A stretch of DNA of 64,000 nt from Callorhinchus milii (GCF_018977255.1 NW_024704743.1:6264001-6328000); one strand, 5' to 3'. Positions 25,433-49,154 are shown, counted from the stretch's first letter. Notes: generated by a model not told the origin, from the sequence alone. Translations and numbers: made by a program.

Positions 25433-28400
25433 TTACAACTGAGTAAATACATCAGGAACTTCATCGAAAGCGTTGTTCAATGGCATAGATGTTTCCCCAG
25501 AAGGAACTTGGAAACCTTCCTCTTCAAACAGTGATACCAGAGTGGACACTGTTGATTTTGGATCAAGAAATGTTACTAGTGGCACACTGACATTCTTTTC
25601 CTGGTGAATCCGATTCTGTATGGTCATTCCTATCATGGAATCAATGCCAAAACTGGAGAGAGTAGATTCTTTGGTAAAGTCTGTAGGATCTGTGTTGCTC
25701 ACTTCAGACAACAAGGTTATTATATACTGTTCAGGAGATATTGATGAGTCACTGACCACCACTTTGACATTTCCTTTGCTGATCTCTTCCTGCATAATTG
25801 AATGGAAACGTCTCCTGCTTGATGGGTTTTGGGAGAGATTAACATATATATTTGAGAAATCAAATTTACAGATTACTTGTTGTGGATTGTTCAGGGTCAA
25901 ACAACGTTCAAAGCTTTCAATGATTTCAGAAATTTCTATTGCCAAAATCCCTTTCAACTCCAGAAATTTCCGAACCTTGTCTTTATTGAGCAGCAGCCCG
26001 AGATTCAGTGCTCCCCAGTTCACAGATTGCCCCACAAGCCCATGGCATCGCCTAAAGTGGACAAAGTAATCAAGAAATGAGTTTGCTGCAGAATAGTTAG
26101 CCTGTAGAGATGTTCCAATGAATGAAGCAACTGAGGAAAAGCACACAAAGTACTCCAGCTGGAGGCCTTGTGTTGCATAGTGAAGATTCAAGACCCCAGC
26201 AATTTTGGGAACAAGAACCTTATCAAACAATGATTTATTTAGATCTTCAAAGAGTGAATCATGTAAGACCACAGCACTGTGAAACACTCCTTTAACAGAA
26301 ACCTTTGGGAAGGAGTGAAGAAAATTACTGATTGCTTTCTCGACATTTGACAGAGCTGAGATGTCACAGGCCACGCAAATGATCCTTGTCCCAATTTCAT
26401 TCTGTAGTTTGCTAAATTCCTCCTGCTTCTCCTTCGATGGAGAGCTCCTTGAAAGAACAAGAATATAGCCACCGCCATGGTTGGCAATGAATTTCACAGT
26501 TTCAAAGCCAAGACCGGTAAGTCCTCCAGCAACTATATACACAGCATCACTTTTAAAGAGCTGCTTTTGTCTGCAGTGCATTGGAATCTCTGACATCCTA
26601 GTCTTGGTGGTGCTCTTCAGAACTGCAATGGAGACACCTCTGCATGTAAAGTACGACTCATTCCTGCACTCAACCATGTCTGATATTCTTTGCTGGAAGA
26701 TCATTTTTGATAGATCAAAACGTTTCGTCCCTAAATACATTGTTCTCATCCATTTATAGATACGATTTGCAGATTTCATGAGATAGCCCTTTTGAAATAT
26801 ACTGGCTAACTGCAGAACATGAATACAGACATTGTCCTTTTCATTTTGGAGAATGTCTTGGGAAATATCAAGCATCTGCTTGTTGTCCAGGAGAACAACA
26901 ATATCCGAGCAGAAGAACCATTGACATATTTTGAAATAGAGGTTTTTTCAAAAGGTGGCAATAAAAGCAAAGCATCACAGTGAACAGGAATCTGTACAAA
27001 GTCATTGGAGTCTGGGTGAACCTGAACTCTCCAGCCAGACTCCCTGGCTGTCAGAGACAAGACTTTACTCAAACACGAATCAGGTATCATGGAAACAATT
27101 ACCAAGCGTTTCTGATGTTTGGGTTTTGGTAAGAGATTATGGAATATTTCCCATGCTATTGTGAAGTATGACACACAAGGGATCTCCTTCAGCAATGGTA
27201 CTTTCTTGCTTTTGAAACAAACAACAGCAGGAAGGCTGACATTTGAAGCTGCAGGAACCGGGTAACATGCAACAATATGATCTCCCACTTTACAACTCTT
27301 CACATCACTGCCAACAGCAGTGACTGTACCACTAAAGTCCAGAGCCACGAGATTGTGCCCACCAAACACACTTTTGCTCCAGTACAACGTCTTCCCATAG
27401 TTTAGATCAGAGACACTAACTGGGAAGTAATCCGCTGAATGCATGCAAATTGCATCCAATTCAATGTGTACACTTTGTTTTGTGGGTGCACTCATTTTGT
27501 TCTCTTGAGGTTTGGCATGCAAATCCACAACATTGTAAGGATCCATGATCTGGAAAAGGACATTTCCAAAACCAGAATAAGAAGTCCCACCATTGGTATT
27601 GTCTGAGATTATAAGGGATGTTCGTGTGATCGTGGAAGCATGCAACATTCCCTGGCTGATCATTACCTCAGGGTGGGTCACCCCATCAGACAAGACTATT
27701 ACATTAGCTAATGCTGCCATATCTGCATCACTGATAGAGCTGACATCAATGATCTGAAATAAAACCTCTGGAATTTCTGCATGCATGATCTCGTCATACC
27801 CCACAGGGCAAACCCTGGAGTAATTTGATCCACTGTTTTTTCAGATGTCCTGTATGTTATTACTCTAACAGATTTTGTGCCATTTTTCCCTCGAACTAAC
27901 TGAATGATCTGACGATAAATCTCACAGCAGCTACTGACCTCTTGCACCACTGCTGTGCTGGTCTGGTTAGTCAGGTTTACAGTCCCCCACAGGAAGAACA
28001 CCTCCTCATAGCTATTCAGGTTGCGGGCATTGTACTTTCTCAGAAGATCCACAACTTCTGTACCAGTGAAATTGTCATATTCCTGGTAAGGAATATATGT
28101 GGACTGACTGTGCAGGAACTTTTTGAGGCTTTCAGCCACTCCATAGTTATCACCAAACACGAGTGATCTTGGGCCAGAAGCAAGATTTTTGCCCTCTTGA
28201 AGGTGAGGAATTTCTACCCAGATACTTTCATAGAACAAATCATTGATTCCTCCTCCATTGTTCACGGTTAGAAATGTGGTTCTGATATTTTTCAGTTCGG
28301 CAATGATTATGCCCTTTGTATCTGTGAAGCCCCCACAGACCTCTAGATAATCTGGAGTGATTTTACTGATCCTCAGATACATCAGCATTTCTTGTTGTAA

Positions 28401-48700: not shown

Positions 48701-49154
48701 TGTCGCCTCTATTTTAGCTGGTGTGGCTGGTTTCATGGCTCTGTGGGATGTTAATCTAGACTCCATATCTATGATTAATCTGGTTATTTGTATTGGGTTT
48801 TCAGTTGACTTCACAGCCCATATTTCATATGCATTTGTTTCAAATGACAAAGCAAGTGCCAATGAACGTACCATCGAAGCATTGTACACTCTTGGCTATC
48901 CCATTATCCAGGGGGCGCTTTCCACTATTCTGGGTGTTGTTGTGTTGGCTGCTGCAAACATTTACATATTTCGGACATTTTTCAAAATCATGTTTCTTGT
49001 CATATTGTTTGGTGCAATTCATGGCATCGTCTTTATGCCGGTGTTTCTGACATTTTTTGGAATATGTGGCAAGCGAAAGGTTAACAAAGGAAAGGCGATA
49101 CCAATTGGAATGGGAAGTACTACAAAAAAGCAGTTAAATATTGATGGGTTTTAG
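42072..49154 (+). CDS. PTCHD3: Patched domain-containing protein 3-like (RND superfamily / sterol-sensing-domain membrane protein), 4 exons, 866 aa
   Basis: Exons 42072-42794, 44752-44873, 44985-45130 and 47545-49154 total 2601 nt in frame, with GT-AG introns. N-terminus [13 protein letters not shown]...YPWWF; TM4 GIGVDDMF and TM10 GFSVDFTAH transporter motifs; multiple TM segments. Confidence 0.92.
42870..44240 (+). mobile_element. Internally deleted L2 LINE (AP-endonuclease start joined to 3' end) in PTCHD3 intron 1
   Basis: [33 protein letters not shown] at ~43460; L2 3' motifs (CACTGGCTGCC...TTCAAGATCCTC, GCCTTCAGCC...TGGAATTCCCT) after ~43790. Boundaries approximate. Confidence 0.8.
44752..44873 (+). 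CDS. PTCHD3: PTCHD3-like exon 2 ([41 protein letters not shown])
   Basis: Translated by hand; acceptor ttacAG, donor AG|GTAAAG. Confidence 0.88.
44985..45130 (+). CDS. PTCHD3: PTCHD3-like exon 3 ([22 protein letters not shown]...APFLILG)
   Basis: SSD helices; acceptor tttacAG, donor G|GTTAGT. Confidence 0.9.
45212..45490 (+). mobile_element. SINE (head + core) in PTCHD3 intron 3
   Basis: GGAGTCCTGTAGCG... head, TTTCCTTACTCCAC segment. Confidence 0.75.
45500..45915 (+). mobile_element. CR1 LINE 3' end
   Basis: [18 protein letters not shown]...[15 protein letters not shown]. Confidence 0.82.
46766..47135 (+). mobile_element. tRNA-derived Deu-like SINE in PTCHD3 intron 3
   Basis: Head, core and tail as in the other copies. 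Confidence 0.85.
47545..49154 (+). CDS. PTCHD3: PTCHD3-like exon 4 (GIGVDDMF to stop)
   Basis: Acceptor tttacAG at 47544; ORF continues to TAG at 49154; one N at 48499 keeps the frame. Confidence 0.92.

Follow-up and report, generated by a model that had tools for sequence, protein, structure and literature searches.

Organization of the locus

The window, i.e., the whole stretch of 64,000 nt from Callorhinchus milii that was analysed (C2:6,264,001-6,328,000; C2 numbers refer below to the whole scaffold and all other positions to the window), carries a PKS gene on the minus strand and a PTCHD3-like gene on the plus strand. Their head-to-head arrangement, described in an earlier note on this DNA, is real, with the start codons at 39751 and 42072 and a gap of 2,321 bp between them. 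The best named matches of the plus-strand gene in a protein database search are PTCHD3 or PTCHD3-like, that of the protein encoded here being the PTCHD3-like protein of C. milii (99%), a holocephalan cartilaginous fish. The pair, hereafter unit U4, is one of six in an array and comprises the following features:

39694..39751, minus strand: PKS coding exon 1, ATG at 39751, unit U4
38328..38481, minus strand: PKS exon 2 (KS), unit U4
36705..36865, minus strand: PKS exon 3 (KS), unit U4
34773..34976, minus strand: PKS exon 4 (KS active-site DTACSSS at 34833-34813), unit U4
34244..34425, minus strand: PKS exon 5 (KS), unit U4
25433..30998, minus strand: PKS exon 6, unit U4 (rest of KS, AT, DH, degenerate ER, KR, ACP)
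41210..41278, minus strand: predicted PKS TATA box (41278-41271) and short non-coding first exon, prediction only
39752..42071, no strand: spacer between the two start codons, 2.3 kb, AT-rich, without a CpG island
42072..42794, plus strand: PTCHD3-like exon 1 (TM1, first extracellular domain)
44752..44873, plus strand: PTCHD3-like exon 2
44985..45130, plus strand: PTCHD3-like exon 3
47545..49154, plus strand: PTCHD3-like exon 4 (sterol-sensing domain, second extracellular domain, TM4/TM10 acidic motifs)

Single N bases occur at 20368, 23933, 47218 and 48499, each closing a homopolymer run; over 464 kb there are 15 Ns of this kind, which indicates that base counts in this assembly are uncertain. 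A LINE-type reverse transcriptase fragment (RVT_1, E 1e-17) is located at 50262-51092 on the plus strand, and the introns are full of many repeat pieces resembling it.

The PKS gene

The U4 PKS gene consists of six coding exons with GT-AG ends on the minus strand, and six coding exons are likewise described for medaka olpks (PMC4604110). The domain order is KS-AT-DH-(dead ER)-KR-ACP, with every catalytic motif there according to Pfam and a motif check; no thioesterase or ER family scored above the Pfam cut-off in the U4 PKS, and the ER NADPH motif GGxG is carried at its site by none of the 47 aligned sequences. Identity to the 46 aligned homologues amounts to 44-63%. By analogy with MuPKS, as described in PMC6334511, we infer that the product of the C. 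milii enzyme would be of the polyene type.

The gene had been called complete, which overstates its condition: as assembled, exon 6 of U4 carries two one-base deletions, near 27781 and 26906, one open frame of about 2,100 aa is absent, and the full-length lizard and salmon homologues match the U4 PKS across three reading frames. The break at 27781 is private to U4, and the contigs of runs X7 and X10 (like X5, runs whose RNA nature is a guess) have one additional letter there compared with the window; the private PKS breaks may be assembly errors, because most of them fall in short one-base runs and because of this additional letter. The break at 26906, common to U2, U3 and U4 and not found in U1, U5 and U6, fits by this sharing a real inherited lesion. 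The contig of run X7 spanning 26906 is U1-like in its number of differences (12, the count for U1) and at each of the 5 listed sites of U1 type; therefore, the contigs were rejected as proof of an intact U4 PKS. A programmed frameshift or a small intron at 26906 was rejected as well, since three sister copies and the database protein have one base more. The indel table from the run contigs, filled by repeats, had no row for the break at 27781 or at 26906. An intact C. milii PKS protein of 2,107 aa is on record; thus, an open PKS allele exists in the species, although U4 is not necessarily that copy. The U4 PKS may be a pseudogene, and U1 is the copy for which an open frame has support. Intron 5 of U4 contains an 87-bp decayed duplicate of the exon 6 start (31383-31469, minus strand), which has counterparts in U2, U3 and U5 and is absent from U1.

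The PTCHD3-like gene and its protein

The intactness claimed for the PTCHD3-like gene stands: its four exons give one open frame of 866 aa, with one N at 48499, and both GxxxD(D) motifs are kept, as GIGVDD at 47544-47561 and GFSVDF at 48795-48812. A Patched/SSD domain and two extracellular domains were recognized by domain search and in a structural model. The model was built on the sister copy U2, 845 of whose 866 residues are identical to those of U4; its pLDDT is 84.6, and its fold compares with those of NPC1, NPC1L1 and PTCH1 at a TM of about 0.8, and with Dispatched, MmpL3 and MmpL5 at about 0.6. The acidic triad D335/D336/D752 is kept in 86, 80 and 86 of 86 aligned sequences, respectively. 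The ion-site residues of the triad were defined for DISP1 in the Dispatched preprint, where mammalian PTCHD3 is stated to retain all ion ligands and to be probably driven by the Na+ gradient. As modelled, PTCHD3 has the predicted fold and the ion-site residues of an active RND/SSD transporter. No solved PTCHD3 structure was among 39 PDB matches, and its function 'remains elusive', as worded in the PTR-4 preprint. A complex prediction for PTCHD3 residues 5-840 and the ACP domain of PKS, run without alignments, scored 0.00 and is neutral as evidence.

Other Patched-family loci of the genome (L006, L007 and L008) share 27-32% identity, and L008 bears the GIGADD motif typical of Dispatched; no PKS match was found near any of the three.

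The six-unit array

The co-duplication of the pair in six units and the mirror-image PKS within the window were missed in the earlier note. Exon mapping over 464 kb placed six PKS-PTCHD3 units at C2:6.146-6.40 Mb, in an array of ~250 kb with three units per direction, and PKS stands head-to-head with the PTCHD3 start in 6/6 units. The duplicated sequence is restricted to the array, while ACBD5, YME1L1, RAB18-like and MKX lie outside and are not amplified, PTCHD3 being positioned in C. milii between YME1L1 and RAB18:

547..6112, plus strand: sister PKS exon 6, unit U3, with one-base deletions near 2497 and 4640
49..9961, plus strand: left arm of an inverted duplication (9.9 kb; 97.9% identity to 21598-31503)
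C2:6.047 Mb: ACBD5, name read from family matches/motifs
C2:6.135-6.140 Mb: YME1L1, name read from family matches/motifs
C2:6.442 Mb: RAB18-like exon, name read from family matches/motifs
C2:6.518 Mb: MKX, name read from family matches/motifs

The arms at 49-9961 and 21598-31503 are the inner arms of the array, and the U3 PKS at 547-6112 is the mirror-image sister of the U4 PKS; exons 1-5 of the U3 gene and its PTCHD3 exon-1 remnant are situated left of the window. The array contains five four-exon PTCHD3 genes, all open (861-893 aa), besides the exon-1 remnant of U3, and no PKS frame is open as assembled (0/6 copies). The four long PKS copies each carry one or two one-base breaks, and one of them also a 225-bp insertion; U5 and U6 have large deletions in PKS with an open PTCHD3 alongside, and in U3 a long PKS stands beside a truncated PTCHD3. 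Between array copies dS is 0.01-0.04, and dN/dS is 0.34-0.70 for PKS as well as for PTCHD3. At about 99% similarity, U5 and U6 could represent a haplotype artefact. Every PKS-type KS match of the genome (992 Mb searched) is inside the array; two other KS loci found elsewhere are presumably FAS and the mitochondrial KS.

The exons of U1 (C2:6,146,000-6,190,000) are 89-99% identical to those of U4 (dS 0.02-0.04), and most introns and the spacer fail to align; this combination suggests, at the level of sequence, that U1 is an old duplicate with exons homogenised by gene conversion. The insertion in exon 6 of the U2 PKS (225 bp, C2:6,238,014-6,238,239) is repeat-like with a short duplicated target, and the database model of the U2 PKS is flagged as low quality. 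Scattered pieces of exon 6 of PKS and of PTCHD3 exons, at C2:6,146,349-6,146,918 and C2:6,192,622-6,196,987 and in the window at 12237-12366, 15355-15466 and 60617-60723, point to additional units that are older and have decayed.

The spacer between the start codons had been regarded as a shared upstream region, which was not borne out in the sense of a promoter: a CpG island is absent, with GC of 37% and CpG o/e of 0.43. At the position predicted for the PKS TATA box, 41278, TATAAAAG is indeed present on the minus strand, followed by a splice donor at 41209, and it keeps the rank of a prediction. The predicted box and first exon are present in U2-U6 and absent from U1. The ATG gaps of the six units measure 10.3, 3.8, 4.5, 2.3, 2.0 and 2.0 kb, and the U1 spacer (10.3 kb) is unrelated to those of the other five units (2.0-4.5 kb). 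A compact shared promoter is therefore no fixed feature of the pair, because U1 is without the predicted TATA box and first exon and its spacer is unalignable; co-regulation of PKS and PTCHD3 from a shared promoter may be supposed. A bacterial promoter scan was set aside, the host being an animal.

Linkage of the pair in other animals

PTCHD3 is reported in the clam PKS paper to neighbour almost all animal PKS homologues (PMC9894158), and the other named flanking genes differ within the animal set of that paper and in the sea star (PMC9894158, PMC12330192), where PKS1 and PTCHD3 are the sole genes of one 56-kb sweep window (PMC12330192). In the wall lizard five full-length Pks and five Ptchd3 genes are described between Rab18 and Acbd5, and some duplicates of both genes were kept for 170-190 My (PMC10990284). 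The order ACBD5-YME1L1-PTCHD3-RAB18-MKX is conserved in vertebrates, and in zebrafish a ptchd3 is placed between rab18b and yme1l1b, no pks being named in the available text (PMC4454137). Vertebrate synteny alone says little, because YME1L1, RAB18 and MKX are conserved neighbours too.

Among the best matches listed, as read by eye, the PKS and PTCHD3 source contigs are equal-sized in 14 of 18 other species with lengths for both, the four mismatches being Conger, Colossoma, A. ruthenus and Huso. The accessions or locus tags of the two genes are consecutive in six of 12 other vertebrates (Polypterus, Polyodon, A. oxyrinchus, Aplochiton, Coilia and Leptodactylus), within 30 in four and far apart in two, with the numbering serving as a proxy for position and most of the 12 species picked since their source contigs already matched. 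The nearness of PKS and PTCHD3 in other vertebrates, mentioned in the earlier note, and the co-duplication of the two genes are supported far beyond what the sequence alone could show. Of the checks proposed earlier, linkage is conserved, with the head-to-head orientation assessed in the C. milii genome; duplication of both genes is found here and in the wall lizard, and placental mammals keep PTCHD3 without PKS. Databases contain full-length PKS proteins of several frogs, a group described in PMC4604110, judged by Xenopus, as having lost pks.

Function and expression of the homologues

Medaka PKS is located at the apical membrane, its lipophilic, solvent-extractable product being secreted into the endolymph, and a water-added extract of a fungus expressing this PKS rescues the otoliths of mutants (PMC4604110); entry of the product is therefore possible even when no producing cell provides a dedicated route. 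Vertebrate PKSs are described as lacking a release domain (PMC6334511), so that trans-acting partners are to be expected. Placental mammals are without PKS (PMC10764717), mice lacking Ptchd3 are normal and a person null for PTCHD3 was healthy; mammalian PTCHD3 occurs on sperm, and the human protein is found in the ER of transfected cells, where it co-localises with calnexin (PMC7285965, PMC3072306).

In the pearl-mussel mantle, pks15 and a patched3-like gene show joint upregulation in purple as well as golden shells (PMC12652611); the mussel PKS genes are Hcu_1142.t12 and t13, and Hcu_1142.t14 is up in both comparisons (PMC12652611 supplement). The joint rise could reflect copy number at one locus. 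The GO terms of Hcu_1142.t14 are, as we take it, those of worm ptr genes, and for this reason and its rise in both comparisons it is probably the patched3-like gene. In C. milii, contigs of runs X5 and X7, whose RNA nature is guessed, cover PKS exon 6 and PTCHD3 exon 1; some intron bins are without cover in the same runs, likewise of guessed RNA nature, and were set aside as evidence. No ptchd3 or pks1 rows were present in 12 of 16 files of the zebrafish inner-ear single-cell supplements, and PTCHD3 was likewise absent from the supplementary material of the clam paper and of the zebrafish pks1 paper. The literature search returned neither transport, knockout or vertebrate co-expression data for a PKS-PTCHD3 link nor cell-level co-expression of the two genes.

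A proposed synthase-exporter module and its alternatives

PKS and PTCHD3 may constitute an old two-gene module to make and handle a polyketide lipid. At the first step, which has been shown for homologous enzymes, an unsaturated fatty-acyl (polyene-type) chain would be produced by the iterative KS-AT-DH-KR-ACP synthase, whose ER is dead and which has no thioesterase; at the second, shown in medaka, PKS, acting at the apical membrane, would yield a lipophilic product that passes to the extracellular fluid. The third component, shown by the sequence and the model, is PTCHD3 as an NPC1/Patched-type transporter with a full ion-binding triad. At the fourth step, PTCHD3 made in the same cells might use an ion gradient to move the product or a lipid conjugate from the membrane into the lumen or the matrix, in the way known for MmpL proteins and mycobacterial PKS lipids. 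Within such a module the need for export of the product would keep the pair adjacent and make it the unit of duplication; in C. milii the pair would have been amplified to six units, with the U4 PKS maybe dead. Since the genes were copied together six times and are adjacent in many animals, PTCHD3 probably moves the PKS product out, and export by PTCHD3 is the reading to which we lean, if only slightly. Further points in its favour are the independent lizard array, the joint rise in the mussel mantle, the preserved acidic triad and NPC1-like model of PTCHD3, the secreted lipophilic product of medaka PKS and the dispensable PTCHD3 of placental mammals, which are devoid of PKS.

The broader proposal, that PKS and PTCHD3 have formed a biosynthesis-and-export cluster since the bilaterian ancestor, with PTCHD3 as a dedicated exporter and human PTCHD3 as an orphaned half, is advanced tentatively, as somewhat short of probable. 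Equally tentative is its extension, by which the exported PKS lipid might start otolith or spicule mineralisation or colour feathers and shells, and human PTCHD3 might have been orphaned by the placental loss of PKS. Against export stand the five open PTCHD3 copies beside 0/6 PKS open as assembled and the 10-kb spacer of U1, and also the retention of the ion site by mammalian PTCHD3 without any PKS, as observed in the cited work, the ER location of PTCHD3 in transfected cells and the rescue of medaka mutants by externally added product.

The two genes might instead be passive neighbours, unrelated members of an old duplication-prone block that were co-copied through closeness alone, which we consider rather unlikely. 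Closeness of 2-10 kb guarantees co-copying by any duplication of 20-35 kb, the gene order from ACBD5 to MKX is conserved in vertebrates anyway, decay has been independent (an open PTCHD3 with a deleted PKS in U5 and U6, a long PKS with a truncated PTCHD3 in U3), and PTCHD3 persists in placental mammals without PKS (PMC10764717, PMC7285965, PMC3072306). However, the pair, unlike the other neighbours, is adjacent across the animal set of the clam paper and in the sea star (PMC9894158, PMC12330192); the amplification ends at YME1L1 and RAB18 here and stays within Rab18-Acbd5 in the lizard, where the long retention of some duplicates concerned both genes (PMC10990284); and both genes rise jointly in the mussel mantle (PMC12652611).

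Still less likely is a purely regulatory link, with shared enhancers active in the same secretory or mineralising cells and PTCHD3 moving a sterol or other lipid or working in the ER: the nearest solved relatives of PTCHD3 are cholesterol transporters, the human protein co-localises with calnexin (PMC7285965, PMC3072306), worm PTR proteins are proposed as apical-matrix lipid exporters, with no PKS mentioned in the available text of the PTR-4 preprint, and external PKS product rescues medaka mutants (PMC4604110), but such a link alone leaves the dispensability of PTCHD3 in a PKS-less lineage unexplained, and a PKS without a release domain calls for trans-acting partners (PMC6334511).

The adjacency of PKS and PTCHD3 and their co-duplication in the lizard are already known, and what is new is the array of six head-to-head units, together with the combined argument for a synthase-exporter module. 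No export role of PTCHD3 for a PKS product is proposed in the available parts of the literature naming both genes, a body of work largely outside the subscription papers. If true, the synthase-exporter module would provide an orphan transporter of the Patched family with a cargo and account for the harmless loss of human and mouse PTCHD3. It would also furnish the export step so far missing for the otolith-triggering PKS product; clusters that combine a synthase with its exporter are known as a microbial pattern, and such a cluster would be a surprise in animals.

Comparison with known systems

The vertebrate iterative PKS clade includes medaka OlPKS, zebrafish pks1, budgerigar MuPKS and duck ApPKS. 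The C. milii PKS resembles its members in the six coding exons, the length of about 2,100 aa and the KS-AT-DH-dead ER-KR-ACP order without a thioesterase, and differs from them in the presence of six copies and in the two frame breaks of U4 as assembled. The transporter-like gene agrees with PTCHD3, a Patched-related member of the SSD/RND superfamily whose nearest solved relatives are NPC1, NPC1L1, PTCH1 and DISP1, in its four exons, the Patched/SSD domain, the two extracellular domains and the full acidic triad, and differs in its five open copies in C. milii.

The wall-lizard array is similar in occupying the same locus, with several copies of both genes and structural instability; Ptchd3 is treated there as Hedgehog-receptor-like, and no functional link to Pks is drawn in the available text (PMC10990284). 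With dS of 0.01-0.04, the C. milii array is much younger than that of the lizard.

The mycobacterial pks-mmpL clusters taken for comparison are those of MmpL7 with Pps/Mas, MmpL3 and MmpL5-AcpM. In mycobacteria, MmpL genes adjoin pks genes, and MmpL proteins export their lipids. The animal pair is like these clusters in that an iterative type I PKS, laid out like Mas (E 9e-166 to that protein), adjoins a membrane protein of RND fold; unlike in them, PTCHD3 is 11-13% identical to MmpL and not orthologous, and PKS and PTCHD3 are two spliced divergent genes instead of an operon. Conserved physical linkage, a trait of biosynthesis-plus-export clusters, was found for PKS and PTCHD3, and the pair accordingly resembles by its layout a pks-mmpL cluster with a putative export function.
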